64,000 nt of DNA from an uncultured Defluviitaleaceae bacterium (GCA_964492715.1 CAZBLK010000002.1:66896-130895), one strand, 5' to 3'. Counted from the first letter of the stretch, positions 805 to 47,064 are shown. Translations and numbers: made by a program. The notes: generated by a model not told the origin, from the letters alone.

Positions 805-853
805 TTATGCCCTCCTAGTTTTACAAACAAACCCAATAGGGGCGAACCGCCCC

Positions 854-3061
854 CTACTGCCGTACAATGTTATATGTAGCAAACGTTTCCAAAATACCTT
901 TATAAATACCTTCTGCCGCCTTTTGTTGATACTCCTCTGTTTTAAGCTTTGCGGCTTCTTCGGCGTTTGTAACAAAGCCAACTTCGCACAAAACAGCAGG
1001 AATTGTAGCGTGCTTTATTACAATGTATGAGTTAGATTTTACTTTTCTGTTTGTAGAGCCTAAGCTGCTTATAAGGTTTTTCTGCATAATTTCAGCTACT
1101 TGTTGGCTTGACACGCCAATTACGTTGTCGTTGTCGTGCTTGTAGTAGTACACTTCTGTACCGTTTGCCGCTTTGTTTTCGTCAGACGAATTGTTGTGTA
1201 TGGAAACAAACAAGTCGGCCGTTTTGTTTGCCATGTAAGCTCTGTCCATAAGTTCCACGTTTACATCAGTTGTTCTTGTAAAGTATGCCTTTACGTCATT
1301 TTGGCTTTCCAGTAGCTTTTTAAGCTTTAAAGCAATTGCAAAGTTTAAGTCTTTTTCTGTAATGCCGTTTGCAACAACCCCTGGTGCTTTTACGCCTCCG
1401 TGCCCTGGGTCAATCATTACAATTTTAGAGTAAACCTGTTTTGGGTGCATTGGCTTAATGTAAAGGCGTGTGTCGTCCTCTTGCACAACAAACGCAAGAA
1501 TTTGCTTTTCGTTTATAACAATTTCGGTTTGCCCTGTTCCGTTTTGCTGGATAATTACCGAGCTTATATAGTCGTTTCCAACAGGAATTTCACCGTAGCC
1601 CAAAATATTTGACATGTCCGATGGCAACGTTAAAATGTACTTACCAAAGCTGTATTGGTCGTTGTGTGTAATGTTGCTTACGCCAATTGTGCCACTTCCT
1701 TTTTTGTCAATAATAATTGCCGACTTATCCATGTCGTATTGAACATTTTTATATGTAGGCTCTGAAAGAGTAACCGTTGCCGTGTTGCCGCTTATATCAA
1801 GCGAATACTTTGCATCTTGCGCCATGTCAAGAACAACTCTGGCGGTTTGTTCGTCAAATTGTGCTACACGAACAGCCGAAACGTACTTTCCGCTTCCGCT
1901 TGGCGCAACAGCCTTAATTGATGTTAGCGGTGCGTCAATTATAACTCTGTATGGGTTTGTAAGCGTTTGAAGCTTTACAGAAGGCTGACCCGTAAACGTA
2001 ACCGAAACTTTGTCGTTTGTTCCGTCAGAGCTTATCCCCACGCCTGTAATTTCGTTTTTCTCAAACGAAATAATAACTTGCTTTCTGTCCTGTGAAAAAC
2101 CAACTTTGTAAGAAATTGTAGAGTTAAGCTCAAACACAACCCTAGTAATTTTAACAGGCGTAAGCTCGTTTTGCCCAACACGAAGTTTTGACACAGGGCT
2201 GTTTTGCACCGCTACTGCTGTGTTTTTTACTGCCATTTCGGCGTTGTAAATGTCTACCACAAGGCGGTTGTCGTTTAAAAGAAATTTGTTTACTTTGCTA
2301 ATTGGCGACGTTGCATTAATTGCAAAGGAATATCCGTTTTGTGCCGTTGGAAGAACAACGTCAGTTATTTTTGTTTCTGAGTGTTTTTCTTCTGTAAGCG
2401 GCTGTGTTGAAACGTCCTTTGCAAGCGCCGTTGGTTGTGGCGTAACTGTAACTGGTGGTTGCGCTGGGCTTGGGCTTGGCGTTTGAACAGGCGCTGGAGT
2501 AGGCGTAGCTGTGTTTACGCCAACAAACGCAAGCATTTTCATGTAATCGTCCGACATAACAGCAACTGTTCTTGTTGTGTCTTCCCACTTTACGCTAAAG
2601 CCCAAGCTTTGCGAAACAAAGCTTAAAGGAATCATAGTTTTATCGTTTATAATTTTTGCTGGAATTTGCATTTCCAGCTGTTTGCCGTTTACTTCTGCAA
2701 GCGTGCTGTTTGCTTTAATAATAACAAGGTTGTCGCCCATGCCGACATATGCTTCTTTTTTTACGTCATTCCAAGAAACGACAGCGCCCATTTTTTCAAA
2801 AACTTCTTTTGCAGGCACAAGCGTGTAATCTTGAAAAATTATCGGCGGCATAGCAAGGTTTTTTATTTCCTCACCGTCAACTACCAAATGAATTTGTTTT
2901 GCGTTGTATTTATGGTTTGCACCGTCATACACAAGGTTCATTGTAACATAGCTTGTGTCAACCTCGGCGTTTGCATTTATTGGAACTGCTGTTAAATTTA
3001 TTAAAAGCGAAAGTAAAAGCGTAGTAATTTTTTTTGTTTTATGTAAGTTAGTTTTTCGCAT
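854..3061 (-). CDS. Secreted N-acetylmuramoyl-L-alanine amidase with a copper-amine-oxidase-like N-domain, PT-rich linker, AMIN-like repeats and a C-terminal Amidase_3 domain
   Basis: 735-aa ORF with an N-terminal signal peptide (LLLSLLINLTAVPINANA). Cu_amine_oxidN1-like segment (YTLVPAKEVFEKMGAVVSW). C-terminal MIDPGHGG...SIHNNS...GTEVYYY Amidase_3 motifs. Confidence 0.9.
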   Translation of the reverse strand: MRKTNLHKTKKITTLLLSLLINLTAVPINANAEVDTSYVTMNLVYDGANHKYNAKQIHLVVDGEEIKNLAMPPIIFQDYTLVPAKEVFEKMGAVVSWNDVKKEAYVGMGDNLVIIKANSTLAEVNGKQLEMQIPAKIINDKTMIPLSFVSQSLGFSVKWEDTTRTVAVMSDDYMKMLAFVGVNTATPTPAPVQTPSPSPAQPPVTVTPQPTALAKDVSTQPLTEEKHSETKITDVVLPTAQNGYSFAINATSPISKVNKFLLNDNRLVVDIYNAEMAVKNTAVAVQNSPVSKLRVGQNELTPVKITRVVFELNSTISYKVGFSQDRKQVIISFEKNEITGVGISSDGTNDKVSVTFTGQPSVKLQTLTNPYRVIIDAPLTSIKAVAPSGSGKYVSAVRVAQFDEQTARVVLDMAQDAKYSLDISGNTATVTLSEPTYKNVQYDMDKSAIIIDKKGSGTIGVSNITHNDQYSFGKYILTLPSDMSNILGYGEIPVGNDYISSVIIQQNGTGQTEIVINEKQILAFVVQEDDTRLYIKPMHPKQVYSKIVMIDPGHGGVKAPGVVANGITEKDLNFAIALKLKKLLESQNDVKAYFTRTTDVNVELMDRAYMANKTADLFVSIHNNSSDENKAANGTEVYYYKHDNDNVIGVSSQQVAEIMQKNLISSLGSTNRKVKSNSYIVIKHATIPAVLCEVGFVTNAEEAAKLKTEEYQQKAAEGIYKGILETFATYNIVRQ

Positions 3062-3211
3062 TTTCCGTTTTTTCTCCTTTGTGTAAATTGTAAAAACTAT
3101 TCTAATTTTATTATAACAGAAAATGCGACATAATGTCTAACAATTGACACATTGAAATAAAACAGTAATATTCGGGGATAATACAATTAACATAATTAAT
3201 TTTGGGGGTGT

Positions 3212-3352
3212 ATGCTTTTGGACATAAACTGCACAAACAAATGTGTTTTTCAAACGGAGGGAAAATGTAACCTTAACAGCTTGCCTGCACTTAAAAGCTT
3301 TAGCCTTGAGGAGGGGGAAAGCGACTGCCCTTATTGTGTGGGGAAAGGCTGA
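3212..3352 (+). CDS. Small Cys-rich protein (46 aa), hypothetical
   Basis: Below the ORF-track cutoff. ATG preceded by GGGGGTG. Translation: MLLDINCTNKCVFQTEGKCNLNSLPALKSFSLEEGESDCPYCVGKG. It has a C-x3-C-x7-C and a C-x2-C motif and is followed by a 13-bp stem hairpin. Confidence 0.4.
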   Translation: MLLDINCTNKCVFQTEGKCNLNSLPALKSFSLEEGESDCPYCVGKG

Positions 3353-3364
3353 AAGTAAATTTGC

Positions 3365-3410
3365 AAAAAAATTGAGGAGAGAAATTTCACAATAAACTTT
3401 CTCTCCTCAA
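3365..3410 (-). terminator. Intrinsic terminator at the end of the purine block I operon
   Basis: 13-bp perfect stem TTGAGGAGAGAAA/TTTCTCTCCTCAA (3372-3384 and 3398-3410). A run of 7 T follows on the minus strand. Confidence 0.7.
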
Positions 3411-3426
3411 TCTATAGCAACTCCAC

Positions 3427-3531
3427 TATAGCAATTCCAGTTTTTAACGATAATGGCAGAGGGAAGCCAAACGCCTAGTCGTTTACCGTTTTGACCAATA
3501 GACAATGTCGATTAAAAAAGGAATTGCTATA
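3427..3531. repeat. TIR-bounded small element carrying the conserved 65-nt core (copy 1 of 2)
   Basis: 12-bp inverted termini TATAGCAATTCC / GGAATTGCTATA. The core at 3440-3505 (..GCAGAGGGAAGCCAAACGCCTAGTCG..) recurs at 33422-33488. Confidence 0.6.
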
Positions 3532-3564
3532 ACTTTACCACCTGCAAACCAGAGGAAACATTTT

Positions 3565-5031
3565 TTAAAGCCCATTAAATTCTTCAATTAACCTGTCAAG
3601 CTCATTAGCCATGCCGTGCAGCTTGCCCCAATACTCATCATAGTCATACCACTGTGCGTTTAATTCTTCAACGTCGTACTGTTGCTGCTCTATCCATGTA
3701 TAATATTTTAAGTTGTGTATACGCTTTTTAGTTTGATAAGTAAGTTCTTCCATGCTGTCTGTACGCACTGCATGGACATGGCAAGCAAGGTCAAGCTGTG
3801 CATCAAATTTAAGGTACTCCCTGCCCCTTTCGGCTTCCATTTCGTCAAGCCTTGACTCGTACATTTCCGCAGAGTCTGTAAGAATTGTAAACACTATGTC
3901 GTTTTCTGTAAGCTCATAATATTTAGCAAACTTAATTGACGTCAAAATGTTTGCCGCCCCAGAAATTCCTACCCAGTTTAACTTTTCTATTACGTCGTTT
4001 GAAACTCCGCATTCCTTTAAATATTCATGCCCTGCTTCTTCGTTGCAAAGCCTAAAAAGCCCAAGTGCATCATTGTCGTCAACTGCAACAACCATGTCTG
4101 TGTTTTTTACATTATGAATCCACGGAACATGTTTGTCTCCAATTCCTTCTATGCGGTGGTCGCCGAAGCCGTTTTTTAAAAGTGTTGGGCATTGTAAAGC
4201 TTCACCAACGGCAAACTTTGCATTTTTGTGGTTGTCTTTTATAAAGTCAGCACTTCCCAAAGTTCCGCCAGAGCCAGACGTTAAGCAAACGCCTGCAACA
4301 CGGCTTTTTTCGCCTTTTATTGCGTTGAAAATGTCGTTAAATGCGTTTCCTGTAACTTCGTAGTGCCACAGGTGGTTTCCAAGCTCGCCAAACTGGTTAA
4401 AAATTATTACGTTGTCACGAGTGTTGCGAAGCTCCCACGTTTTGTCGTAAATTTCTTTTACGTTGCTTTCGCAGCCAGGCGTTGCAATAATTTCGCCGGC
4501 AACAGTTTTAAGCCACTCAAACCTTTCACGGCTCATGTTTTCCGGCAAAATTGCAATTGACTTGCAGCCAAGAAGTGCAGAATTGTACGCACCGCCACGG
4601 CAATAATTCCCAGTTGAGGGCCAAACTGCCTCGTGGAACTCTGGGTCAAACTGCCCTGTTACAAGCCGTGGAACAAGGCAAGCAAAACTAGCCCCAACTT
4701 TGTGCGCCCCTGTTGGGAAAAACTTTCCGCTCATAGCAACAATTCTAGCTTTTACGCCGGAAATTTTTTGCGGAATTTCAACAAAATTCGGAAGCTTATT
4801 GTACAAGCCGCCTGTTCTTTGTGGTTGGTTTTTCCACGAAATTCTGTAAAGGTTAATTGGGTCAACACAGTAAAGCCCAGTCTCCTTTAACCTTTCCTTT
4901 ACACTTTCAGAAATTTTATCAGGGTCTTTCATTTGTGCAATAGTCGGAATTACAATACCACGGCTTTTTACAGCATCAGCTGTTTTTTTACGTTGCTTTT
5001 CATTTATTGTAAGGTCGATTAATTTTTTCAT
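3565..5031 (-). CDS. Fold-type-II PLP-dependent enzyme (Trp-synthase-beta/cysteine-synthase superfamily), specific function unknown
   Basis: 488 aa counted from the ATG at 5031, which has a GGGAG RBS; the track ORF extends to 5109, into a repeat. Candidate PLP-lysine motif FPTGAHKVG and a glycine loop LTSGSGGTLG. Last gene of block I. Confidence 0.6.
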   Translation of the reverse strand: MKKLIDLTINEKQRKKTADAVKSRGIVIPTIAQMKDPDKISESVKERLKETGLYCVDPINLYRISWKNQPQRTGGLYNKLPNFVEIPQKISGVKARIVAMSGKFFPTGAHKVGASFACLVPRLVTGQFDPEFHEAVWPSTGNYCRGGAYNSALLGCKSIAILPENMSRERFEWLKTVAGEIIATPGCESNVKEIYDKTWELRNTRDNVIIFNQFGELGNHLWHYEVTGNAFNDIFNAIKGEKSRVAGVCLTSGSGGTLGSADFIKDNHKNAKFAVGEALQCPTLLKNGFGDHRIEGIGDKHVPWIHNVKNTDMVVAVDDNDALGLFRLCNEEAGHEYLKECGVSNDVIEKLNWVGISGAANILTSIKFAKYYELTENDIVFTILTDSAEMYESRLDEMEAERGREYLKFDAQLDLACHVHAVRTDSMEELTYQTKKRIHNLKYYTWIEQQQYDVEELNAQWYDYDEYWGKLHGMANELDRLIEEFNGL

Positions 5032-5102
5032 AAAATTACTCCCTTCAAGTGCTAATAAATATTTAGATAACAGAAGCAAAAATGCTTTCCTTGCACAAAA
5101 AT

Positions 5103-5160
5103 GGGTCAAGGGGCAAGCCCCTTGCGGGGGTTTGGGGGCAGAGCCCCCAAGGTCTTAATC
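5103..5160 (+). repeat. GC-rich double-hairpin repeat, copy 1
   Basis: GGGTCAAGGGGCAAGCCCCTTGCGGGGGTTTGGGGGCAGAGCCCCCAAGGTCTTAATC. Two palindromes: AAGGGGC-AA-GCCCCTT and TTGGGGGC-AGA-GCCCCCAA. Confidence 0.9.
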
Positions 5161-5182
5161 CTTTTTCCGTCCCCCCAAGGTT

Positions 5183-6439
5183 TTATTCCTTTTCCGTCCC
5201 CTCAAGATACCCCTTCAAATCCGACAAATGAGGTTTAATAACCTTAGGCCTTAAAACCGCCATCTGTGCCGACTTAATGTCCTTCAAACCACTTCCCGAA
5301 ACAACAAACACAACTGTTTCATCTGCTCCAATTTTCCCTTCTTTAACAAGCTTTGTAAGCCCGGCAAAAGCGGCAACACCAGCAGGCTCGCCAAACACGC
5401 CTGTGTTTCGTGCAAGCGTAGTCATTGCAGAAAGTATTTCATTATCACTTACATTAACAGCAATTCCGCCGCTTTCTTTAAGCGCAGTTAACGCCTTATA
5501 CCCATTCCGTGGAATACCCACCGAAATACTGTCAGCAATAGTTTGCGGCGGAACGTAGTCAAACCCAAATTCCCCTTTGACAAACGCCCTGTTTACAGGG
5601 TTCGAGTTTTCTGCCTGTACAGAAACCATTTGCGGCAGCCTGTCAATTAACCCAAGCTCGTAAAACTCTTTGAACCCTTTCCAAACGCCAGCAATGGAAC
5701 ACCCATCACCAACAGACATTACAACTTTGTCGGGCACATTAAAACTTAGCTGCTCCAAAATTTCAAAGGCGGCAGTTTTTTTGCCCTCTACCAAGTATGG
5801 GTTTATGGCACAGCTACGGTTGTACCAGCCGTATTCCTCTACAGCTTCCAAACAAAAATCAAACGCTTTGTCATAGTCGCCGTCCACCAAAACTACATTA
5901 CTTCCAAAAATTAAAAGCTGAGTAAGCTTGCCTTCTGGAATTGCCTTTGGCACGAATATATAATTTTTCAAGCCCATGCAAGCCGCAAAGCCAGAAACAC
6001 TAGAAGCGGCGTTGCCCGTAGAAGCGGCACAAATTACGTCTTTGCCAAGCTCGCAAGCTTTTGCTACGCCAACGGCCGAAGCTCTGTCTTTAAACGAAGC
6101 TGTTGGGTTTCGCCCTTCGTCCTTAAAGTAAACGTTTTTAATGTTAAACAGCTTTTCTAGCAGCCCCGACTTATAAAGTGGCGTGTTTCCAATTTTAAGT
6201 TCTGCCGCACCCGAAAGCCCTTTAAGCGGTAAAATTGGCAAGTACCGCCAAATTGTTTGGTCTGCATTTTCCTGTAAATACTTTTTTGTAAGAGTTTGTT
6301 TAACAAGCGGCATGTCGTACAAAACGTCAAGCGTTCCTTCTGTGCCACAAACAGGGCAGTTGTACATAACAGTTTCGTCAACAAGCTTTCCGCACTTTGA
6401 ACACCGTAAATGTTTAATCTTTTCCATAACTATCCGCAA
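5183..6439 (-). CDS. Threonine-synthase-like PLP enzyme with an N-terminal zinc ribbon
   Basis: 418-aa ORF. CSKCG...CPVCG zinc ribbon, the ThrC-type PLP motif NPTASFKDRAS and ASTGNAASS. The start codon is uncertain (TTG at 6439 or ATG at 6427) and no strong RBS is present. Confidence 0.7.
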   Translation of the reverse strand: MRIVMEKIKHLRCSKCGKLVDETVMYNCPVCGTEGTLDVLYDMPLVKQTLTKKYLQENADQTIWRYLPILPLKGLSGAAELKIGNTPLYKSGLLEKLFNIKNVYFKDEGRNPTASFKDRASAVGVAKACELGKDVICAASTGNAASSVSGFAACMGLKNYIFVPKAIPEGKLTQLLIFGSNVVLVDGDYDKAFDFCLEAVEEYGWYNRSCAINPYLVEGKKTAAFEILEQLSFNVPDKVVMSVGDGCSIAGVWKGFKEFYELGLIDRLPQMVSVQAENSNPVNRAFVKGEFGFDYVPPQTIADSISVGIPRNGYKALTALKESGGIAVNVSDNEILSAMTTLARNTGVFGEPAGVAAFAGLTKLVKEGKIGADETVVFVVSGSGLKDIKSAQMAVLRPKVIKPHLSDLKGYLEGTEKE

Positions 6440-6446
6440 GGCTTGT

Positions 6447-7121
6447 TTATTTTAACTTAATCATGCTTAAAATATCGCTGCCCTGCTCCTCCTTAACCAG
6501 CTTCATGTACCGATAAACACTTGGTATTGACATGTCAAGAGCTTTTGCCGTAATGTTTACAGCACCTTTTAAAACAAAAACCCCCGATTGGTAAAGCGTT
6601 TTTATAATAAGCGTTTTGTCGTCCTGCGAAAGGCTTAAAGGGTCAATGTTGTTTTCGGCGATGACGGCTTTAATGCTTGAAATTGTGTGTTCCTCTGCGC
6701 TTATGTTAAGCTGTTCAAGCATTACGTCGTCTTGATATTTGTCGGTGTCGCCTATAATGCTGTTTAAATAGTTACGCATACTTATAAGCTGTAGGTTGTC
6801 GGTGTTTACGCAAAGAAGTCCCACAAGTTCGCCTTCATCACGAATAAAAAACGTTGTAGAACGTATGCTTTGTGCGTTCTTTACTCCGCTAAGGCTGCTT
6901 TCAACAAAGCTTGCTTCGCCCTCTTTTGCCATAGCAACAATTTTGCCTACTTGCTCGCTGGACGGCTCGCCAATTGCGTTTCCGCTTGCTCCACCGTTTT
7001 TCATTGCAATTACTTTAGGTGCATCACCTGTTACATCATGCAAAACAATTTCCGAGTTTGCACCAAGGACAGCCGCAAGGAAGTCCACCAAATTTATATA
7101 AGACTTTAACAATTTATTCAT
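6447..7121 (-). CDS. YheO/DauR-like transcriptional regulator (PAS-like sensor plus C-terminal HTH)
   Basis: 224-aa ORF. N-terminal LVDFLAAVLGANSEIVLHD... YheO-like PAS segment. C-terminal HTH segment (ITAKALDMSIPSVYRYMK). Confidence 0.6.
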   Translation of the reverse strand: MNKLLKSYINLVDFLAAVLGANSEIVLHDVTGDAPKVIAMKNGGASGNAIGEPSSEQVGKIVAMAKEGEASFVESSLSGVKNAQSIRSTTFFIRDEGELVGLLCVNTDNLQLISMRNYLNSIIGDTDKYQDDVMLEQLNISAEEHTISSIKAVIAENNIDPLSLSQDDKTLIIKTLYQSGVFVLKGAVNITAKALDMSIPSVYRYMKLVKEEQGSDILSMIKLK

Positions 7122-7156
7122 AACTCACCTCATCAAATTCTACAGAAAAAACTATA

Positions 7157-10100
7157 TTATACCATAAAACTGTAGTTTTCAAAAAAGGCTTTTATAACGT
7201 TGTAAATTGGGTTTGGAAGATGGCTATTTTCGCTGTCATCCTCAAGCGAAGTTTCCACTACACTTTCACCATAACGTACACGAACAACTTTTCCTTCATC
7301 TATCAACAAAAACCCTTGCTGTGTGCTTTCGTTAAAGTCGTCCTCCGATGAAAAGTATGTAAGCTTATCTTTGTAAGGCGCCGACTTATAAGGGCAGAAC
7401 CCCTCACAGTTTCCGCACTCGTTGCAAAGTGGGTCAAGGTGTACAATTTGCGACATAGAAAGTTGTGGAACTTTTACGGAAACGTTTGCTCTGTTTGGGC
7501 AAACCTCTACGCAAATGTTGCAAACGTAATTACATTCTAAGCAACGCTTTGCTTCGCTTCCTGCTTCAAGCGTGTGGCAAAGCACAGCTTTTTTTGCCGA
7601 CAAAGCATCATAGTTTTCGCCTGCCATGTCCTCGAACGATTTCAGCGGAAGCTCACAGCCTTTTTCACGTTTCATAACCTCGTTTGCAAACGCCAAGCCG
7701 TCAGCCATTGCTTCAACAATTGTCGAAGGCCCACGAGAAGCATCTCCGCCTATGAACACATTTTTAACGGAAGTTTCGCCGTTTTCGTTTGCTTTTATTT
7801 TTCCGTTTACAACTTCAATTCCGTTTTTCTCACAAACAGTTGTGTCTACACGTTCGCCAATTGCGCCGATTACTGTGTCAATTTCAAGCGTGACAAATTC
7901 GTCTGTCGGAACAGGGCTTTGCCTGCCAGTTTTATCTTTTTCGCCAAGCTTCATTTTTTGACAAGTCAAAACGCCGCCTTTGTGCGAGTGTGGCGCTGTA
8001 AGCTCTAAAAACTTAACGCCTTCAATTAAAGCAAGCGCAATTTCTTCACGTTCTGCTGGCGCTAAGTCCATTGTGCGCCTATAAATTACATAAACATTTG
8101 CAACGCCGTTTACACGTGTTGCCGCACGTGCGGCGTCCATTGCAGAATTTCCTGCGCCGATTATTGCAACGTTTTTGCCCAAGCTTACGCTAGGGTTTTC
8201 CCTAAACTGCTCCAAAAATTCAATTACGTTTAAAGGTGTTTTGTCGCTTTCGTCCGCAAGCTTAACTAACGTTTGCTTCCCTGCGCCAATTGCTAGAAGA
8301 ACATATTTAAAGCCGCCACTAAAAAGCGTTTTCAAAGAAAAGATAGGTGTAAAACCTGTAACAAAACGTCCTCCGTGCTTTTTCACAAGCTCTACGTCTT
8401 TTGCAACAAGCTCGCTTTCAATGCGGAAAGTTGGAATGACGTTTGCAACAACGCCTCCAAGCCTTTCTTTTTGCTCGAAAACTGTTACATCAAAGCCGCT
8501 TTTGCAAAGGAACATAGCCGCTGAAAGACCGCAAGGCCCTGCGCCGATTATTGCAACTTTTGCACCGTTTGCTTTTACTGGAATAACTTGGTTTACAAGC
8601 GTGTCGTATGCGGCTTCGGTTGCAACAAACTTTTCCCTGCGGATATAAACAGGCTCGTCGTAGTCTATGCGTGTGCATTTGTCCATACATGGGTGGGCGC
8701 AAATTTTCCCTGTTGTAAACGGCATTGCGTTACGCTCGGTTATTACTTTTAGCGCACCCAAGTAGTCGCCGTTTCCAGTGCGCTTAATGTACTCTGGAAT
8801 GTCTTGATGAATTGGGCAGCCGTTTTTGCAAGGCGCAACGTAACAGCTTAAAAGTGGAACTTGCTCGTTTATTTTGCGGCTTTCAACATGGCGTTTTTGT
8901 TTCATATGGTTTGGGTCAATTTCTGTTGCTAAAGCTGCAAGCTTTTCAAGGTTTATTCCGCTTGGAACGTCATGGCCTTTTTCTAAAAGCTTTTCGGCAA
9001 TTTGCTTTAACCGCAAATAACCGCCTGGTTTTAAAATTGTAGTCGCAACCGTAATTGGGAAAATGCCAGCTTCAAAAATTTTGTCAATGTTAAAAGCATC
9101 TGCACCGCCAGAAAATGAAATGTTCAAGTCGCCGTCAAATGCTGTTGCAAGAATTAACGCCGCATTTATAGAAAGCGGATAAAGCCCACGCCCCGACATG
9201 TACATTTCTTCTCCGGCAAGGCGGTTGTCAACAATTTTTACAGGGAAAGTGTTTGTTAGCTTTACGCCAAACGTAAGCCCCTGCTCTTTTGCCGTTTGCT
9301 TCAGCCGTGTAAGCATAGAAATTGCGGCATCAAACTGCAAATCGTTTTTAAAATGGTGCTCGTCAAACACCAAATGCTTGTATCCCATTTTGTCGCAAAG
9401 TTCCCTAGCCGTTTTGTAGCCCAAAATCGTTGGGTTCATTTTAACAAACGTGTGCAGCTTTTTTTCTGTAAGCAAATAGTTTGCTATTTTTTCAATTTCA
9501 CCTGCTGGGCAGCCGTGAAGCGTTGACAGCGTAATGGATTTGCAAATTTCTGGTGAAATTTCATTTATATATGCTTCGTCTACATTTTCAAACAAAGCTA
9601 TGTTTTCAAGAAGGTAATTTTTACATTGTTTAAAAATGTCGGTTTGCTCGGCGTTTTTCAGCCCTTCTATAAATGTGTTTATCTTCTGAGAAGTAATTCC
9701 GTCATAGTCGTAGCCCACGCTCATGTTAAAAGCAAAGCCATCTTTTGCGCCAAGCCCAAATTCCTTTGTAAGTATAGCAAGCGCAAAATAACCCTTTACA
9801 TATTCCTCAAAAGCTTCGTTTACGTAAAGCTCGGTTGACCATTCAACGTTAAAGCCCTCGTCCGTCGCTTCAATGCAAGGCTTTGCAACAGGTAGGTCTG
9901 GCCCGTCAAGTGTTTGCACCGTTTTAAGCTCGAAAAAGCGGCTGCCCGTTAAAAACCCAGCAACAATGTTTTGTGCAAGCTGTGTGTGTGGGCCTGCGGC
10001 TGGGCCAAACGGCGTTTCAATATGCTTGCCGAAAATTGCCAGCGTTTTTTCTTTGTCTGACACAAAAAACTTGCTTTTGGGTACGCCAAAAATTGTTCCC

Positions 10101-10171
10101 TCTTGTTTATATTCTGTGAATATCCAGTTTATAAGGCGGTTAAATGGTATTTGCTTCATTCGTTCGCTCAT
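7157..10171 (-). CDS. ygfK: YgfK-type multidomain Fe-S flavoprotein oxidoreductase ('putative selenate reductase subunit YgfK' family)
   Basis: 1004-aa ORF. N-terminal dihydroorotate/dihydropyrimidine-dehydrogenase-like barrel. Cys clusters CYVAPCKNGCP and CAHPCMDKC. GltD-like dinucleotide folds IIGAGPCGLSAA and IIGAGNSAMD. C-terminal 2x[4Fe-4S] motifs CLECNYVCNICVEVCP and CNECGNCEGFCP. Confidence 0.85.
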   Translation of the reverse strand: MSERMKQIPFNRLINWIFTEYKQEGTIFGVPKSKFFVSDKEKTLAIFGKHIETPFGPAAGPHTQLAQNIVAGFLTGSRFFELKTVQTLDGPDLPVAKPCIEATDEGFNVEWSTELYVNEAFEEYVKGYFALAILTKEFGLGAKDGFAFNMSVGYDYDGITSQKINTFIEGLKNAEQTDIFKQCKNYLLENIALFENVDEAYINEISPEICKSITLSTLHGCPAGEIEKIANYLLTEKKLHTFVKMNPTILGYKTARELCDKMGYKHLVFDEHHFKNDLQFDAAISMLTRLKQTAKEQGLTFGVKLTNTFPVKIVDNRLAGEEMYMSGRGLYPLSINAALILATAFDGDLNISFSGGADAFNIDKIFEAGIFPITVATTILKPGGYLRLKQIAEKLLEKGHDVPSGINLEKLAALATEIDPNHMKQKRHVESRKINEQVPLLSCYVAPCKNGCPIHQDIPEYIKRTGNGDYLGALKVITERNAMPFTTGKICAHPCMDKCTRIDYDEPVYIRREKFVATEAAYDTLVNQVIPVKANGAKVAIIGAGPCGLSAAMFLCKSGFDVTVFEQKERLGGVVANVIPTFRIESELVAKDVELVKKHGGRFVTGFTPIFSLKTLFSGGFKYVLLAIGAGKQTLVKLADESDKTPLNVIEFLEQFRENPSVSLGKNVAIIGAGNSAMDAARAATRVNGVANVYVIYRRTMDLAPAEREEIALALIEGVKFLELTAPHSHKGGVLTCQKMKLGEKDKTGRQSPVPTDEFVTLEIDTVIGAIGERVDTTVCEKNGIEVVNGKIKANENGETSVKNVFIGGDASRGPSTIVEAMADGLAFANEVMKREKGCELPLKSFEDMAGENYDALSAKKAVLCHTLEAGSEAKRCLECNYVCNICVEVCPNRANVSVKVPQLSMSQIVHLDPLCNECGNCEGFCPYKSAPYKDKLTYFSSEDDFNESTQQGFLLIDEGKVVRVRYGESVVETSLEDDSENSHLPNPIYNVIKAFFENYSFMV

Positions 10172-10182
10172 ATAAAACCTCC

Positions 10183-11499
10183 TTACACTCTAGCCCAAAG
10201 TTTTTGTGAAAGCTCTCTTGACTTTGCAAAAATTTCTGCTTCGTCTGCCGTCAAAAGCTTTCTGTCACGCATTACAACTTTGCCGTTAATAACCGAAGTT
10301 AAAGTGCATCGCCCACTCATACCAAAAAGAATGTGCGAGTTTATGTTTGTTTCGTTAAGCGGTGTCAAAGGGTCGTACTCAACTATAATAACGTCTGCGG
10401 CATAATCTTCTTTAATTTTCCCGACATTCCCAAAGTATTTTTCGGTTATTGCACGGTTGTTTTCAAAAAGCATTTGCGGAACTTCTCCCCATGCAACGCT
10501 TGGGTTTTGCTCGTTATGCTTTTGAAAAATGTTTGCAACTTTCATAGACTCTAACATGTCGCTTGTGTAGCCGTCTGTGCCAAGCCCTGTTAAAACACCT
10601 TGCTCCATTAGCTTTAAAATTTTTGCACAGCCCACAGCGTTACCCATGTTTGACTCTGGGTTGTGTACTACTATCGTATTTGTTTTTTTAAGCAGCTCAA
10701 TTTCGTTGTCGTCTACGTGTATGCAGTGTACGGCAATTGTGTTTTCACCCAAAATGCCGCTGTCGTTAAGCCTCTCAATTACACGCTTGCCGTACTTTTC
10801 TGTGTTAAACTTTACGTCCTCAACGCCCTCTGCGGCGTGAATGTGAAAGCCTGCATAGTCTGGCTTTTTTGCAACTGCCTTCTCAAGCGTTTTGTCCGAA
10901 AGTGTAAACGCCGCATGAAGCCCAAACATTCCGGCCGTCATGCCACCGTTGTTTTCTTTTGCGTGTTTAATGAAGTTTACGTTTTCCTCAATTCCTTCAT
11001 CAGCAATTTTTTCACCGTCTCTGTCGGAAACCTCGTAGCAAAAGCACCCACGGACACCAAGCTCGTTAGCAACGTCAGCAATTGTAAACAAGCTGTTTGT
11101 AACAGAATACGCCGAAGCGTGATGGTCAAACACAGTTGTAACGCCATTTTTTATGCTGTCGGCAAACGTTGCGTATGCGCTGTATTTTACATCATCAAGG
11201 TTTAAAGCTTTGTCAATGCGCCACCACATACCCTCCAGCACTTCCCCAAAGTTTTTTGGTGAAATTCCAAGGTTTAGCCCCCTTGCAAACGCACTGTAAA
11301 TGTGGTGGTGTGTGTTTATTAAACCTGGCATAATGACGTTTCCGCAAGCGTCAATAAATTGTTCATTAGGGTATTTAGCTTGCATTTCTGCCGTTTCGCC
11401 ATAGCCTTTAATTTTTGTTCCTTCTATGTAAACTGCACCGTTTTCAAAAAACGGCTTTGCCTCATTCCTTGTAATAAGCCTTCCATTTCCAATAAGCAT
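10183..11499 (-). CDS. ssnA: SsnA-type amidohydrolase
   Basis: 438 aa from the ATG at 11499, with an AAGGAGGG RBS; the track start at 11565 lies inside a GC-rich repeat. Metal motif PGLINTHHHIYSAF and a later HxH/D set. Sits adjacent to ygfK, as in the E. coli ygf cluster. Confidence 0.8.
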   Translation of the reverse strand: MLIGNGRLITRNEAKPFFENGAVYIEGTKIKGYGETAEMQAKYPNEQFIDACGNVIMPGLINTHHHIYSAFARGLNLGISPKNFGEVLEGMWWRIDKALNLDDVKYSAYATFADSIKNGVTTVFDHHASAYSVTNSLFTIADVANELGVRGCFCYEVSDRDGEKIADEGIEENVNFIKHAKENNGGMTAGMFGLHAAFTLSDKTLEKAVAKKPDYAGFHIHAAEGVEDVKFNTEKYGKRVIERLNDSGILGENTIAVHCIHVDDNEIELLKKTNTIVVHNPESNMGNAVGCAKILKLMEQGVLTGLGTDGYTSDMLESMKVANIFQKHNEQNPSVAWGEVPQMLFENNRAITEKYFGNVGKIKEDYAADVIIVEYDPLTPLNETNINSHILFGMSGRCTLTSVINGKVVMRDRKLLTADEAEIFAKSRELSQKLWARV

Positions 11500-11518
11500 A
11501 AAACCCTCCTTAAAAAAT

Positions 11519-11573
11519 GGGTCAAGGGCAAAGCCCTTGCGGGGGTTTGGGGGCAGAGCCCCCAAAGTCTTAC
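11519..11573 (+). repeat. GC-rich double-hairpin repeat, copy 2
   Basis: GGGTCAAGGGCAAAGCCCTTGCGGGGGTTTGGGGGCAGAGCCCCCAAAGTCTTACA, lying between ygeY and ssnA. Confidence 0.9.
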
Positions 11574-11574
11574 A

Positions 11575-12786
11575 TCAGCCCTTTGCCCCCTCACAATAAA
11601 GCATTGGAATAACGGCATACATAGCCGCACACTTTACAAGCTCGTCTTTGAAAGTTTTTTCATTGGGCGCATGTGCTTGGTCTTCATGCCCCGGACCAAA
11701 CCCGACGCACGGAATGTTGTACCGCCCCATAATAGAAACGGCGTTTGTCGAAAACGTCCACTTGTCAACAAACGGCTTACTTTCAAAAAGCTGTTCATAC
11801 GACTGCACTAAAGTTTTGCAAGCAATGTGGTCTTCTGGCAAAACCCATGTAGGGAAGTAACATTCTGTTGGGTAAACAAGCCCTGTGTAAGCTGGGCGGT
11901 CGTATTCATACATTGAAACAACGGCGTTTGCTGCCTTTACAGAAGGAAGTGCTTCAATTTCTTTTATTGCGCCCTCCCATGTTTCGCCCCAAGTGAGCCT
12001 ACGGTCTACACTTATAGTACAGCTATCAGCTACAGCGCAACGACTTGGCGACGTAAAGAAAATTTCTGAAACAGTTAAGCTTCCTTTGCCTAAAAACTCA
12101 TCGTAGTGAAGCCTTGTGTGAAGCTCCTTTAACTCGTTCAAAATTGGTGCCATTTTGAAAATTGCGTTGTCGCCACGTTCTGGTGCAGAGCCGTGACAGC
12201 TTACGCCTTTTACCGTAACTTTAATTTCCATTCTGCCACGATGCCCACGGTAAATGTTGCACGAGGTTGGCTCGGTAATAACTACAAATTCTGGGCGAAT
12301 GTTGCTTTCGTTTACTATGTACTGCCAGCACAATCCGTCACAGTCTTCCTCTTGAACAGAGCCTACAACAATTAAAGTGTAGTCGTCTTCAAGCTTTAAG
12401 TCCTTTATAATTTTGCCTGCGTAAACCATTGAAGCCATGCCGCCCTCTTGGTCGGAGCCACCACGCCCAACAATTACGTTGTCGTCCTCTGCACCCTCGT
12501 AAGGGTCGTAGTCCCAAAGCGAAATGTCGCCTATACCAACTGTGTCTATGTGTGCGTCCATTGCAATTACGTGTTTGCCGTGCCCTATGTAGCCAAGCAC
12601 GTTGCCCATTTTATCAATTTCAACTTTGTCAAAGCCGACATGTTCCATTTCTTCCTTTATGCGTAGCACAACTTTTTCTTCGTTACAGCTTTCGCTTGGA
12701 ATTGCAATCATATCTCGCAAAAATTTTGTCATGTTTGGCTTGTAGCTTTCGGCTAGTTCTAAAACTTTTTTAAAATCTATTGACAT
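11575..12786 (-). CDS. ygeY: YgeY-type M20 family metallohydrolase (deacylase/carbamoylase-like)
   Basis: 403 aa from the ATG at 12786, with a GGAGGTG RBS. M20 motifs: [19 protein letters not shown] and QEEDCDG. Confidence 0.85.
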
Positions 12787-12810
12787 TTTTAACACCTCCA
12801 TTTAAACGCA

Positions 12811-14001
12811 CTATTCAAAAAACCTTGCTGGCTTTTGGCTTGCCATTTTTGCAAGCATTTCCGCTGGGTTTTTCACCTTTGAAAGGAAAATCATTGCGGC
12901 GATAATATAAGGCTTGTAACCTGCTTGCTTGTAAAGCGGAACACGGTATCTGTCAAAAACAGAAGCCGCAACCTCGCCTTGTTTGCACGAAACGTCTGTT
13001 ATGTCGGCAGGCAAGCAGTGCATGTATAACGCTTTTCCGTCTTTTGTAAGCTGCATCATTTCTTCGGTACATTCCCAGTCCTTGTGGTTTGCGTTTTGTG
13101 CAAGAAGTTCTTTTTCTAAAGCTTTTATACCGTCAAAGTCGTTGTCTGCGTAAAGGTTTGTGCGTTTTTCCATTGCCGCAAAAGGCGCCCAGCTTTTTGG
13201 GTAAACAATGTCTGCGCCAGAAAACGCCGATTTCATGTCATTTGACTTTACAAACTTGCCGCCTGTAGCTTCTGCATTTTTTGAAGCAATTGCTAAAACC
13301 TCTGGCATAATTTCGTAGCCCTCTGGGTGCGCAAGGTGAACTTCCATTCCAAAGCGTGTCATAAGCCCAACAATGCCTTGCGGAACGGAAAGCGGCTTGC
13401 CGTAAGACGGAGAATAAGCCCACGTCATTGCAACTTTTTTGCCTTTCAAGTTTTCCACGCCGCCGAAGTGGTTTATAATGTGCAGCATATCAGCCATTGA
13501 CTGCGTTGGGTGGTCGATGTCGCATTGCAGGTTTACAAGCGTTGGGCGTTGTTCCAAAACGCCATCTTTAAAGCCTTCTTGAACAGCTTGCGAAACTTCT
13601 TTCATGTATGTATGGCCTTTGCCTATGTACATGTCGTCACGAATGCCTATTACGTCTGCCATAAACGAAACCATGTTTGCCGTTTCACGCACAGTTTCGC
13701 CGTGGGCTATTTGGCTTTTGCCCTCGTCTAGGTCTTGCACTTCAAGCCCTAAAAGGTTGCACGCACTTGCAAACGAAAAGCGTGTGCGTGTCGAGTTGTC
13801 ACGGAACAGTGAAATACCTAGTCCGCTGTCGAAAATTTTTGGGCTTATGTTTTCCTCACGGAGTTTGCGGAGTGCGTCTGCTACGGCGTAAACAGCGTGA
13901 ATTTCGTCGTCTGTTTTGTCCCAAGTAAGGAAAAAGTCGTTTTGGTACATTTCCTTAAAGTTTAAAGTGTTTAGTTTGTTGGTGTATGTTTCTATGCTCA
14001 T
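12811..14001 (-). CDS. ygeW: YgeW-type knotted carbamoyltransferase
   Basis: 396-aa ORF. Transcarbamylase signature FRDNSTRTRFSFASA, HPTQSMAD and a C-terminal HCLPA. N-terminal FFLTWDKT typical of YgeW. AGGAGGAAC RBS. Confidence 0.85.
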   Translation of the reverse strand: MSIETYTNKLNTLNFKEMYQNDFFLTWDKTDDEIHAVYAVADALRKLREENISPKIFDSGLGISLFRDNSTRTRFSFASACNLLGLEVQDLDEGKSQIAHGETVRETANMVSFMADVIGIRDDMYIGKGHTYMKEVSQAVQEGFKDGVLEQRPTLVNLQCDIDHPTQSMADMLHIINHFGGVENLKGKKVAMTWAYSPSYGKPLSVPQGIVGLMTRFGMEVHLAHPEGYEIMPEVLAIASKNAEATGGKFVKSNDMKSAFSGADIVYPKSWAPFAAMEKRTNLYADNDFDGIKALEKELLAQNANHKDWECTEEMMQLTKDGKALYMHCLPADITDVSCKQGEVAASVFDRYRVPLYKQAGYKPYIIAAMIFLSKVKNPAEMLAKMASQKPARFFE

Positions 14002-14029
14002 GGTTGTTCCTCCTTGTTAGTTGAAAAGA

Positions 14030-14085
14030 TTAAGACCTTGGGGGCTCTGCCCCCAAACCCCCGCAAGGGGCTTGCCCCTTGACCC
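14030..14085 (-). repeat. GC-rich double-hairpin repeat, copy 3 (inverted orientation)
   Basis: TTAAGACCTTGGGGGCTCTGCCCCCAAACCCCCGCAAGGGGCTTGCCCCTTGACCC, the reverse complement of copy 1. Confidence 0.9.
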
Positions 14086-14104
14086 TTTTTTAAAAAAGAT
14101 GGGT

Positions 14105-14149
14105 TGTAAAAAAGCGGCTTTACTTTGTTTATCTTTAAGTAAAACCGCT
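14105..14149 (-). terminator. Intrinsic terminator after the carbamate kinase gene, inside block I
   Basis: Arms AGCGGCTTTAC (14113-14123) and GTAAAACCGCT (14139-14149), 10/11 paired. TTTTT follows on the minus strand, and a T-run is also present on the plus side. Confidence 0.55.
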
Positions 14150-14182
14150 GTGTTTTTGCGTTTAATAATTACCGTTTAACAA

Positions 14183-15118
14183 TTACATAGTTATCCTAGT
14201 TCCTGTTTGTCCTGCTATGCCTTCTTTAGCTTTTTCCAAAAGTGTAATAAGAGCAGTTCTGTCTTTGCCTGATTTTGCAAATTTAACAGCCGCTTCAATT
14301 TTTGGAAGCATAGAGCCTGGGGCAAAGTGACCTTCCTTGCAATATTGTTCTGCTTGTTCAACTGTTATTTCGTCAAGCCATTTTACATCTGGCTTGCCAA
14401 AGTTTATAGCTGCTTTTTCAACTGCTGTAAGAATAATTAAAGCGTCTGCGTTGATAAGTTGTGCAAGAAGTGCTGAAGCAAAGTCTTTGTCAACGACAGC
14501 TTGTGCGCCGTTTAGGCGGTTGTCGTCACCGAGTGTTACTGGTATGCCACCACCACCAACTGTAATTACAAGCTGGCCAGCTTCAATTAAAGCTTTTACA
14601 GTGTCCTTTTCAATTACGTCAATAGGCTTTGGCGAAGCAATTACTTGGCGATAGCCACGCCCTGCATCTTCCTTCATTGGAACGCCTTTTTTTGTAAACT
14701 CGTCGGCTTCTTCCTTTGTGTAAAACCTTCCAATAGGCTTCGTTGGGTTTTGGAATTCGGGGGCGTCTTTGTCAACTAAAGTTTGAGTAATAATTGTAGC
14801 AACAGGCATGTTTATTTTGCGAGCCAAAAGTTCTTCACGCAAAGCGTTTTGCAAGTCATACCCAATGTAGCCTTGGCTCATTGCAACGCACATTGACATA
14901 GGCATTTTGTCAAACTTAGGGTCGGCAGTAGCCGCAATGTCCATAGCAAGGTTTATCATGCCAACCTGCGGTCCATTACCATGGGAAACAACAACTTGGT
15001 GCCCTTCTTCAATTAAGTCAACGATAGCCTTTGATGTAATTCTTACGGCTTCCATTTGTTCCTTTAGGTTGTTTCCAAGAGCGTTGCCGCCAAGTGCGAT
15101 TACAATTTTTTTACCCAA
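14183..15118 (-). CDS. arcC: Carbamate kinase
   Basis: 311 aa from the TTG at 15118, with an AGGAGGG RBS 6 nt upstream. KIVIALGGNALG and HGNGPQVG motifs. Equivalent to E. coli yqeA. Confidence 0.9.
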   Translation of the reverse strand: MGKKIVIALGGNALGNNLKEQMEAVRITSKAIVDLIEEGHQVVVSHGNGPQVGMINLAMDIAATADPKFDKMPMSMCVAMSQGYIGYDLQNALREELLARKINMPVATIITQTLVDKDAPEFQNPTKPIGRFYTKEEADEFTKKGVPMKEDAGRGYRQVIASPKPIDVIEKDTVKALIEAGQLVITVGGGGIPVTLGDDNRLNGAQAVVDKDFASALLAQLINADALIILTAVEKAAINFGKPDVKWLDEITVEQAEQYCKEGHFAPGSMLPKIEAAVKFAKSGKDRTALITLLEKAKEGIAGQTGTRITM

Positions 15119-15321
15119 AAAAATCCCTCCTAGAATATGTAAAAACAATTGCTATAAATTGTTATATATGTTGTAATAATAATTTATTATAATGTATTTG
15201 TCAAGATAATTTTTTATCATTGAGCAAAATTTTTTATGTTATTTGTCGGTTATATGGATTAACAAGATTAAATTTTCAGTAAACTTTTACATTAAATTTG
15301 TTTAGTCTTTTTATAATGCGC

Positions 15322-16041: not shown

Positions 16042-16093
16042 TTAAAACCTGGGGGCTCTGCCCCCAACCCCTCAAGGCGCTTACCCCTTGACC
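16042..16093 (-). repeat. GC-rich double-hairpin repeat, copy 4 (inverted, diverged)
   Basis: TTAAAACCTGGGGGCTCTGCCCCCAACCCCTCAAGGCGCTTACCCCTTGACCA, between two convergent genes. Confidence 0.85.
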
Positions 16094-46996: not shown

Positions 46997-47064
46997 TGCA
47001 TACCTCCTATAAGAGAAGCGGCTTGTTGTGCACAAGCCGCTTAGTAGTAAAACTTATAAATATT

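Follow-up and report, generated by a model that had tools for sequence, protein, structure and literature searches.

Only in 2025 was the reductive urate (2,8-dioxopurine) pathway solved, and its use in gout probiotics and microbiome surveys is under consideration. E. coli and C. sporogenes finish it with YgeX (DpaL), the 2,3-diaminopropionate ammonia-lyase, a fold-type-II PLP enzyme that carries out this step alone and is described as the terminal step of the pathway (PMC12507026; bioRxiv 10.1101/2025.04.24.650524; PMC12990295). YgeX/DpaL is the only enzyme mentioned for this step in the urate-pathway papers of 2022–2025. Membership in the YgeX family implies the conversion of both D- and L-2,3-diaminopropionate to pyruvate and ammonia. 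The order of ureido cleavage, and hence the status of albizziin (2-amino-3-ureidopropionate) as an intermediate, is unsettled in the literature (PMC12990295). Published surveys take YgeX as marker gene, one by means of a BLAST identity cut-off and another by the generic Pfam profile PALP. A full-text literature search found no paper on the enzyme pair described here.

The locus originates from a gut bacterium, an uncultured member of the Defluviitaleaceae with a genome that is 94% complete, and was analyzed in a window of 64 kb, which denotes the whole stretch of DNA under study. Its minus strand carries the operon arcC-ygeW-ygeY-ssnA-ygfK-regulator, at the 3' end of which two co-oriented genes for fold-type-II PLP enzymes are located, here termed PLP1 and PLP2. 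The upstream part (7157..15148) consists of reductive urate pathway genes, each scoring above its NCBIfam cut-off: arcC for carbamate kinase (14183-15148, 378 bits), ygeW (12811-14001, 782 bits), ygeY (11575-12801, 713 bits), ssnA (10183-11565, 652 bits) and ygfK (7157-10171, 1367 bits). Directly upstream of PLP1 lies the gene of a YheO-like regulator (6447..7121) composed of PAS_6 and HTH_22 (Pfam 89 and 60 bits). PLP1 (5183..6427) encodes a ThrC-like enzyme of 414 aa with an N-terminal Cys4 zinc ribbon, and PLP2 (3565..5031), the last gene of the operon, a long-form CysK/CBS/SbnA-like enzyme of 488 aa. A preliminary description of this DNA had placed the two genes within 3565-6439, co-oriented and closely spaced behind ygfK and the regulator; the coordinates proved correct, with open reading frames on the minus strand at 3565-5109 and 5183-6439, and the profile matches bear out the arrangement. 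Within these frames, ATG 6427 is the likely true start of PLP1, as homologues begin with MKKIK..CSKCG, and ATG 5031, just preceded by AAGGGAG, is the likely start of PLP2, giving the 488 aa that had been claimed. DNA of the 64-kb stretch is present in four gut-metagenome DNA runs of one study, from which it may originate, and the sequencing-run look-up listed no RNA runs containing it.

PLP1 and PLP2 are the only two genes of the PALP family in the genome. A search of the whole genome with the YgeX model (TIGR03528, cut-off 532 bits) revealed no YgeX; the best match was PLP1 with 28.3 bits, PLP2 was not matched at all, and true YgeX copies in other loci reach 550-625 bits. The earlier statement that neither protein resembles YgeX thus holds, and at family level the pair is not homologous to it. 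Furthermore, no match to homoserine dehydrogenase (Hom; PF00742) was found in the 94%-complete genome, and neither the homoserine kinase ThrB (best match 62 bits vs 168) nor CysE, the serine acetyltransferase that provides O-acetylserine (TIGR01172, best match 26.6 bits vs 211), is present above cut-off. Since the pair constitutes the sole PALP genes in a genome that lacks YgeX, Hom, ThrB and CysE by these searches, neither protein is a housekeeping ThrC or CysK; with homoserine dehydrogenase and ThrB missing, there is also no evident source of O-phosphohomoserine, the substrate that PLP1 would need as a ThrC. Only one gene exceeds the cut-off for dihydropyrimidinase/D-hydantoinase (TIGR02033) with 468 bits, compared to 606 bits for the cluster-borne HyuA elsewhere. 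It is found on another contig between genes without family match, upstream of a chemotaxis-receptor gene. Because this hydantoinase gene is unlinked and lower-scoring, the formation of diaminopropionate in this host is putative.

PLP1 is a clear homologue of the short bacterial type of ThrC (A. aeolicus 2ZSJ, B. subtilis 6CGQ, T. thermophilus 1UIM) with E = 1e-66 to 2ZSJ. It matches Pfam PALP (PF00291) with 255 bits (threshold 35) and exceeds the cut-offs of the ThrC profiles TIGR00260 (233.8 vs 167.1 bits) and NF006050 (304.3 vs 303 bits). The NPTASFKDRAS and CxxC...CxxC motifs that had been read from the sequence beforehand are both present. Similar to ThrC, PLP1 retains the SFKDR motif, which holds the PLP lysine, and the STGN loop. 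In contrast to ThrC, it has the zinc ribbon added at the N-terminus, with all four cysteines invariant in 38 PLP1 orthologues, its gene lies within a catabolic operon, and five ThrC-conserved residues are replaced. Mapping onto solved ThrCs revealed A, C, A, L and D in PLP1 at the positions of T88, N154, S155, R160 and N188 of the T. thermophilus enzyme. In the T. thermophilus structures, these five residues correspond to the phosphate site of ThrC. The replacements T88A, S155A/G and N188D occur in 38/38 orthologues and R160L in 37/38, and N154 is exchanged for A or C; the PLP1 clade thus carries an invariant Asp at the N188 position. The residues T, S, R and N at those positions are kept in 3-4 solved ThrCs as well as in four canonical ThrCs from pair-bearing genomes. 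Those pair-bearing genomes that were examined possess separate canonical ThrCs in addition.

PLP2 matches Pfam PALP with 44 bits (threshold 35) and remains far under every NCBIfam cut-off of the clade that it resembles, with 94.5 vs 351 bits for the cysteine synthase model TIGR01139, 87.6 vs 344 for TIGR01136 and 37.2 vs 394 for TIGR01138. From an AF2 model with a pLDDT of 94.7, Foldseek and VIA-align placed the core in the CysK/CBS/SbnA/CmnB clade, which includes Fn1055 and Fn1220 of F. nucleatum; the core superposes with Z 33-37 at ~22-26% identity. In two members of this clade, SbnA and CmnB, the reaction at the beta-carbon creates the C-N bond of a diaminopropionate precursor, which is related chemistry. 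The catalytic lysine (Lys111 in PTGAHK, part of the FPTGAHKVG motif pointed out earlier), the carboxylate loop (S139-T-G-N-Y), the phosphate loop (SGSGGT, 252-257) and the ring-N serine (Ser357) are all retained. The PTGAHK lysine motif is TrpB-like. Lys and Gly-rich loop motifs are conserved in the PLP1 and PLP2 families alike; that the chemistry is not readable from the motifs, as stated at the outset, was borne out. In contrast to the solved relatives, PLP2 is longer by ~80 residues at the N-terminus and by 70-90 at the C-terminus. These long extensions, already part of the preliminary description, are conserved in the family and occur in no solved chain; residues ~420-488 were covered by none in the Foldseek and VIA-align searches. 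Homologues with a length of 490-495 aa number more than 8000, all with generic names only, and the identity across phyla amounts to 60-80%. An ESM Atlas feature search led to generic 'PLP-dependent enzyme' clusters only. In public records, the PLP1 family is named threonine synthase and the PLP2 family cysteine synthase. OrtB, the beta subunit of 2-amino-4-ketopentanoate thiolase, was considered for PLP2 and rejected, the OrtB model giving no match to PLP2 at E <= 0.001; with PLP1 it gave 57 bits (cut-off 550).

To assess the distribution of both families, 300 genomes sampled evenly from the class were investigated. PLP1-like proteins occurred in 12 genomes and PLP2-like proteins in 13, of which 11 genomes from four families had both and three a single one (1 and 2, respectively). 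In most genomes with both, the genes lie side by side. YgeX was found in 0/11 pair genomes and in 32 others; this zero overlap concerns four families only and, with ~1.2 overlaps expected by chance over 300 genomes, is not significant alone. Close PLP2 orthologues were located within ~6 kb of ygeW in 5/5 cases. The YgeW-positive genomes (n=15) fell into ten with YgeX adjoining ygeW and no orthologue of the pair, and five with the pair and no YgeX. 

A second set comprised 46 genomes across phyla that were selected for PLP2, with flanking sequence for 59 loci. YgeY scored above cut-off in 43/46 of these genomes. YgeX was also present in 19/46, in Desulfosporosinus in the same cluster as PLP2; the pair is thus no mere substitute for YgeX. 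Of the 59 loci, 27 have PLP1 directly next to PLP2 and 4 others have it within 6 kb, 4 show a true YgeX copy as the neighbor of PLP2, and 24 have no PLP partner beside PLP2. Two loci of the Peptoniphilaceae type contain a full YgeV-YgeX-YgeW-YgeY-ArcC operon and a divergent second YgeX copy adjoining PLP2. The spacing of the PLP1 and PLP2 genes ranges from overlap to >300 nt. A regulator of the same type as the neighbor of PLP1 in the window occurs directly upstream of PLP2 in locus L040, whose ORF cluster is shared by L041 and L044. The linkage of PLP1 and PLP2 to purine clusters is seen again in further lineages, among them Desulfosporosinus, Clostridium and Halanaerobiales. Even among PLP2 relatives at 34-40% identity, two of the three examined lie in a purine-gene context (YgeY, adenine deaminase, SsnA-like), one of these two beside a ThrC-like gene and YgeY. 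Stand-alone PLP2 genes have glycerol genes, prolyl-tRNA synthetase or an ice-binding-like protein as neighbors, which do not point consistently to any function.

Gene position and distribution suggest a reading to which we give an even chance: PLP1 and PLP2 would be a functionally coupled catabolic pair that acts where the 2,8-dioxopurine pathway ends, at the level of diaminopropionate. In such a pathway YgfK, SsnA and a hydantoinase would open the rings, and YgeW, together with carbamate kinase and under formation of ATP, as well as YgeY would take off both ureido groups to give 2,3-diaminopropionate, probably as the D isomer. From this C3 diamino acid, the pair would then produce pyruvate and two molecules of ammonia. 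For the substrates and the division of labor between the two enzymes we infer the following. PLP1, a putative threonine-synthase descendant in which the conserved ThrC site has disappeared and the invariant Asp has arisen, may have become a YgeX-like beta-eliminating enzyme. PLP2, as a relative of enzymes that form or cleave bonds to the beta-carbon, may perform a second beta-elimination or a beta-replacement on the same or a neighboring intermediate; candidate roles are the processing of the other stereoisomer, the conversion of diaminopropionate to serine, or an action on albizziin. Rather doubtful, in our estimation, is a more specific version in which the pair would form a two-enzyme route from the last ureido/diamino C3 intermediate to pyruvate via an intermediate foreign to the YgeX route, e.g. 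serine. The likeness to YgeX lies in the fold type, in the same cluster place beside ygeW/ygeY and in the class-sample genomes having either YgeX or the pair, and the diaminopropionate activity of the pair is predicted from this position and distribution; the differences are that two proteins stand in for one and that the pair and YgeX coexist in some lineages. The preliminary description had proposed that both enzymes replace YgeX without being its orthologues, or contribute further steps on the C3 product, and this is supported. Of the two results named beforehand as speaking against it, a canonical ygeX elsewhere was not found in the 94%-complete genome, and a housekeeping ThrC/CysK identity was not seen either. 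The pair and YgeX are kept apart in the class sample, whereas YgeX is present in 19/46 PLP2 genomes across phyla.

The main competing explanation, which we rate as clearly less probable than the coupled catabolic pair, is an extra branch or added step that acts on a different intermediate, with another route disposing of diaminopropionate in YgeX-less genomes. Its variants are ureido elimination from albizziin, which would fit the unsettled cleavage order (PMC12990295), or a biosynthetic or detoxifying diversion of diaminopropionate into serine, cysteine or a different beta-substituted alanine. The coexistence of YgeX and PLP2 just mentioned points in this direction, as do the two Peptoniphilaceae-type loci in which PLP2 adjoins a second YgeX copy next to a full YgeX operon. 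The closest folds to PLP2 likewise belong to beta-replacement enzymes, namely CysK, CBS, SbnA, CmnB and the H2S-forming Fn1055 and Fn1220 of Fusobacterium, and PLP2 is the only CysK-like gene of a genome without CysE. However, the pair and YgeX occur together in no genome of the even class sample, the slot adjoining ygeY and ygeW is taken by the pair in many clusters, and something must remove diaminopropionate in those class-sample genomes, the pair representing the only PALP genes in the present one.

A heteromeric enzyme with PLP1 and PLP2 as its two subunits, in which co-occurrence and the conservation of PLP2 would reflect an interface, is improbable. The near-perfect co-occurrence (11 genomes with both, 1 and 2 with one), the mostly adjacent genes, the 60-80% identity of PLP2 across phyla and its conserved terminal extensions, absent from solved relatives, would agree with such a complex. 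PLP2 also resides beside YgeX in place of PLP1 or without any PLP neighbor, though, and the gene spacing varies from overlap to >300 nt, with a REP-like hairpin element between the genes in the window. A prediction of the PLP1-PLP2 complex, run without controls, scored 0.00, which weighs on neither side. An ordinary biosynthetic threonine synthase and cysteine synthase, lying next to purine genes by chance, are already contradicted and in our opinion extremely unlikely. The two NCBIfam threonine synthase cut-offs passed by PLP1 (304 vs 303 and 234 vs 167 bits) and the names in public records speak for this assignment; against it stand the missing homoserine dehydrogenase, the absence of ThrB and CysE above cut-off, the replacement of ThrC-conserved residues in all PLP1 orthologues next to separate canonical ThrCs in the same genomes, the 94 bits of PLP2 compared to a CysK cut-off of 351, and the purine-cluster linkage in many lineages across classes and phyla.

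These findings affect the annotation of the pathway. PALP is unable to tell YgeX from the pair. With this profile in one survey and a BLAST cut-off in the other, genomes that bear the pair are overlooked or enter the counts on a false basis. The database names threonine and cysteine synthase would wrongly imply threonine and cysteine synthesis in this genome. The roles of the enzymes, once known, would complete a variant of the pathway and could help with the stereochemistry and the order of ureido cleavage. If the two-enzyme route were true, it would provide new catalytic activities for the ThrC and CysK superfamilies and a first function for the PLP2 family of 490-aa proteins, whose members number in the thousands across anaerobic phyla and in many cases stand alone.

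The spacer between PLP1 and PLP2 measures 151 nt and, as the preliminary description claimed, contains a GC-rich repeat. It consists of two hairpins with 8-bp stems at 5107..5150 on the minus strand, TTGGGGGC-N3-GCCCCCAA and CAAGGGGC-N2-GCCCCTTG (inverted repeats I2 and I3), which together represent one of the 56 composite copies of a dispersed REP-like element in the genome; three of these copies fall within the window. A T-run comes after the second hairpin, resulting in a terminator-like site at 5124-5107. A specific structured RNA in the spacer was rejected, as the fold is no stabler than shuffled sequence (z = -0.08) and the hairpins belong to a genome-wide repeat. A sigma-54 promoter was dropped as well, because GG and GC are 11 nt apart by eye, not 10; a full-text literature search found no paper on sigma-54 control of the pair. 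Reading the sequence directly revealed a further hairpin resembling an intrinsic terminator at 3364..3410 on the minus strand, with a 13-bp stem (TTGAGGAGAGAAA / TTTCTCTCCTCAA) and a subsequent T-run. The automatic terminator scan, limited to loops of 8 nt, does not list it, probably on account of its 13-nt loop. Located ~155 nt past the PLP2 stop codon, this hairpin likely marks the end of the operon.

PLP1 and PLP2, the two fold-type-II PLP enzyme genes, close a closely packed minus-strand operon with the order arcC-ygeW-ygeY-ssnA-ygfK-regulator-PLP1-PLP2. Open reading frames and NCBIfam and Pfam profiles thus confirmed this observation of the preliminary description, and all motifs it cited for both proteins were found in the translations. 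NCBIfam models identified arcC (carbamate kinase, 14183-15148, 378 bits), ygeW (12811-14001, 782 bits), ygeY (11575-12801, 713 bits), ssnA (10183-11565, 652 bits) and ygfK (7157-10171, 1367 bits). The YheO-like regulator (6447-7121) was recognized by Pfam PAS_6 and HTH_22, PLP1 (5183-6427, 255 bits) and PLP2 (3565-5031, 44 bits) by Pfam PALP. TTG codons at 6439 and 5109 open the longest reading frames of PLP1 and PLP2, respectively, while the true starts are likely ATG 6427 and ATG 5031. The latter is preceded by AAGGGAG and gives the 488 aa stated previously. A hairpin with a 13-bp stem and a T-run at 3364-3410 probably represents the operon end.

By annotation PLP1 is a threonine synthase: it scores above the cut-off of two NCBIfam threonine synthase models, matches the A. 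aeolicus enzyme at 1e-66, and its family carries this name in public records. In the genome of the window organism (45 contigs, 94% complete), no homoserine dehydrogenase was found and neither ThrB (62 bits vs 168) nor CysE (27 bits vs 211) reached its cut-off. Without a source of O-phosphohomoserine and without O-acetylserine, biosynthetic ThrC or cysteine synthase roles make no sense, and housekeeping threonine and cysteine synthases were therefore ruled out. PLP1 and PLP2 are exactly the two PALP-family genes of this genome, which consequently lacks TrpB, IlvA/TdcB and CysK; auxotrophy for several amino acids is probable in this gut-metagenome organism. A canonical ygeX was not found elsewhere in the 94%-complete genome either, the top match to the YgeX model TIGR03528 being PLP1 with 28 bits against a cut-off of 532.

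Profile searches showed PLP1 to be ThrC-like, and structure prediction with structural search showed the core of PLP2 to be CysK/CBS/SbnA/CmnB-like. PLP1 shares the PLP lysine and the S-T-G-N loop with canonical ThrC, but differs in the pocket: at T88, N154, S155, R160 and N188 (T. thermophilus ThrC numbering, transferred through printed alignments) it carries A, C, A, L and D. Among 38 PLP1 orthologues (49-100% identity) the T88 position is A and the N188 position D in 38/38, S155 is replaced by A or G in 38/38, N154 by A or C in 37/38 and R160 by L in 37/38; the four zinc-ribbon cysteines are invariant (38/38). Four canonical short ThrCs drawn from pair-bearing genomes retain T, S, R and N. 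We take the replaced residues to be those holding the substrate phosphate in the T. thermophilus complexes. The invariant Asp would suit a positively charged group, for example the β-amino group of diaminopropionate.

The PLP2 family comprises more than 8000 matches of 490-495 aa with 60-80% identity across lineages (Clostridia, Desulfosporosinus, Halanaerobiales, Synergistaceae, Atribacterota, Anaerolineae and others), all under generic names. Clustering at 50% gave 279 representatives at E <= 1e-30; since the alignments of full-length members run from about residue 5 to residue 487, the extensions are part of the family. In the confident AF2 model (pLDDT 94.7) the core (about residues 40-410) belongs to the CysK/CBS/SbnA/CmnB clade according to Foldseek and an exhaustive VIA-align search. 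Fn1220, plant OASTL, CapA1, CmnB, CBS and SbnA reached Z 33-37 at 13-25% identity, compared to Z 24-28 for dehydratases and racemases, 24 for E. coli YgeX and 22-23 for TrpB. The C-terminal 70 residues were covered by no solved chain in either search, and PLP2 stays far under every cut-off of the NCBIfam models for the clade. As the family conserves the catalytic lysine (Lys111), Ser357 and both the carboxylate (S-T-G-N) and phosphate loops, PLP2 looks like an active β-eliminating or β-replacing enzyme for an α-amino acid.

The linkage to purine genes extends well beyond the window. Across 80 fetched PLP2 loci the commonest conserved neighbours were PLP1 (38), YgeY (30) and the 2Fe-2S XDH subunit (26), followed by YgfK, SsnA and a sigma-54 YgeV-like activator (24 each), the XDH large subunit and YgeW (19 each). 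Immediately upstream, the loci encode one of three regulator types: a YgeV-like activator, a protein of the YheO-like type present in the window, or an HTH-cupin protein. In the 59 loci with flanking sequence, PLP1 adjoins PLP2 in 27 and lies within 6 kb in 4 more, a true YgeX copy (550-604 bits) adjoins it in 4, and no PLP partner lies nearby in 24. An even sample of 300 genomes from the same class contained PLP2-like genes in 13, PLP1-like genes in 12 and both in 11, the latter from four families and with the genes side by side in most. The singletons were one apparently truncated PLP1 fragment and two PLP2 paralogues at 33-34%. All five close PLP2 orthologues of this sample are located no more than about 6 kb from ygeW, and of the PLP2 relatives at 34-40% identity two of three examined are in purine clusters, one reading adenine deaminase > ThrC-like > PLP2-like > YgeY, the other XdhC > PLP2-like > SsnA-like > PreA-like reductase. 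Distant versions of the pair, likewise placed in purine clusters (L088, G041:C2, 3011-8756; L089, G023:C2, 4325-9120), show about 38-40% identity for the PLP2-like and 46-47% for the PLP1-like protein. One accompanies adenine deaminase and YgeY, and its genome gave no YgeW match at E <= 1e-60; the other accompanies XdhC, an SsnA-like protein and a PreA/UacX-like reductase.

YgeX occurred in 32 of the 300 genomes (27 above cut-off) and in 0/11 pair genomes; measured against all 300 this zero overlap is not significant, with about 1.2 expected. Among the 15 YgeW-positive genomes, ten have YgeX beside ygeW and no pair orthologue, and five have the pair and no YgeX. This either-or distribution, drawn from few independent lineages, is what a non-orthologous replacement would be expected to produce. 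Together, YgeX absence, co-occurrence with ygeW and purine linkage support the earlier hedged reading of a YgeX replacement or an additional step. Across phyla the separation is less sharp: PLP2-selected genomes carried YgeY above cut-off in 43/46, but also YgeX in 19/46. Desulfosporosinus-type genomes have the pair and YgeX together in 10/10, with XDH-YgfK-permease-UacX-SsnA-PLP1-PLP2 and YgeX-YgeV-YgeY-YgeW a few kb apart. Besides the pair and YgeX, the clusters (L004-L017, L021) encode YgfK together with a reductase of the UacX type (DHODH-like plus 4Fe-4S), separated by a xanthine/uracil permease, and resemble a merged or redundant variant of the pathway. Where PLP2 occurs without PLP1, YgeX is present, often in two copies with one directly beside PLP2; neither accompanies PLP2 in only three MAGs. 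The neighbour of PLP2 is thus either PLP1 or a YgeX copy, which points to equivalent roles for these two and to a separate contribution of PLP2. In Gallicola / Miniphocaeibacter (L052, L057, about 300-11500) the first of two YgeX copies lies within a YgeV-YgeX-YgeW-YgeY-ArcC operon, and the second, a divergently placed, lower-scoring one (550 bits), directly upstream of PLP2.

In the published pathway YgeW and YgeY strip 2,3-diureidopropionate of both its ureido groups, and YgeX finally converts diaminopropionate to pyruvate and ammonia (PMC12507026, bioRxiv 10.1101/2025.04.24.650524, PMC12990295). The order of ureido cleavage, via albizziin or 3-amino-2-ureidopropionate, is unsettled in the literature (PMC12990295), likewise the stereochemistry (R, hence D). 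We predict, at about even chances, that the pair performs diaminopropionate-level chemistry in the window organism; any particular division of labour is less probable than that. PLP1 would be the candidate diaminopropionate lyase and PLP2 would catalyze a second β-elimination or β-replacement, possibly handling the other enantiomer, using albizziin as substrate, or converting diaminopropionate to serine in analogy to Fn1055, which is said to form serine from cysteine. The library searched contained no paper on the pair. Li et al. used the generic Pfam PALP domain to mark 'YgeX' in colour in their network of SsnA neighbourhoods, a criterion by which the pair genes would count as YgeX. Liu et al. 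set a minimum of 50% identity to YgeX of C. sporogenes, which would miss them. The operon would encode a new variant of the known urate pathway, with two mis-annotated enzyme families.

A second purine block at 43.9-58 kb, seen by profile matches, contains adenine deaminase, an 8-oxoguanine-deaminase-like gene, xdhABC, mocA, a selenium-dependent XDH, moeA and an xdhC-like gene. The '8-oxoguanine deaminase'-type amidohydrolase (45629-47035, minus strand, 586 bits) has counterparts directly downstream of PLP2 or elsewhere in its clusters in several phyla (L004, L008, L019, L036, L042, L076, L080). A 443-aa reading frame (47065-48396, minus strand) between this gene and xdhC had no NCBIfam match at 1e-10. 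The sole D-hydantoinase/dihydropyrimidinase above cut-off in the genome (L087, G000:C10, 4940-6301, 468 bits) shows no linkage to the purine blocks, being preceded by two genes without family match and followed by a convergent chemotaxis-receptor gene; in other genomes, HyuA genes that lie within purine clusters reach about 606 bits.

The 151-nt PLP1-PLP2 spacer, whose overall fold is not better than that of shuffled sequence, contains two GC-rich hairpins at 5107-5150. They form a dispersed REP-like element of two neighbouring GC-rich 8-bp-stem hairpins with 56 composite copies in the 2.53-Mb genome, mostly intergenic among those looked at. Two of its three window copies (5107-5150, minus; 14038-14081, plus; 16049-16090, plus) lie in intergenic spacers of the operon, PLP1-PLP2 and ygeW-arcC. 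Adjoining the hairpins, the PLP1 3' end (last codons and stop region) recurs as a direct repeat of 22 nt (5144-5165 and 5172-5193; 91% identity, 28 nt apart), which may be the footprint of the element's insertion.
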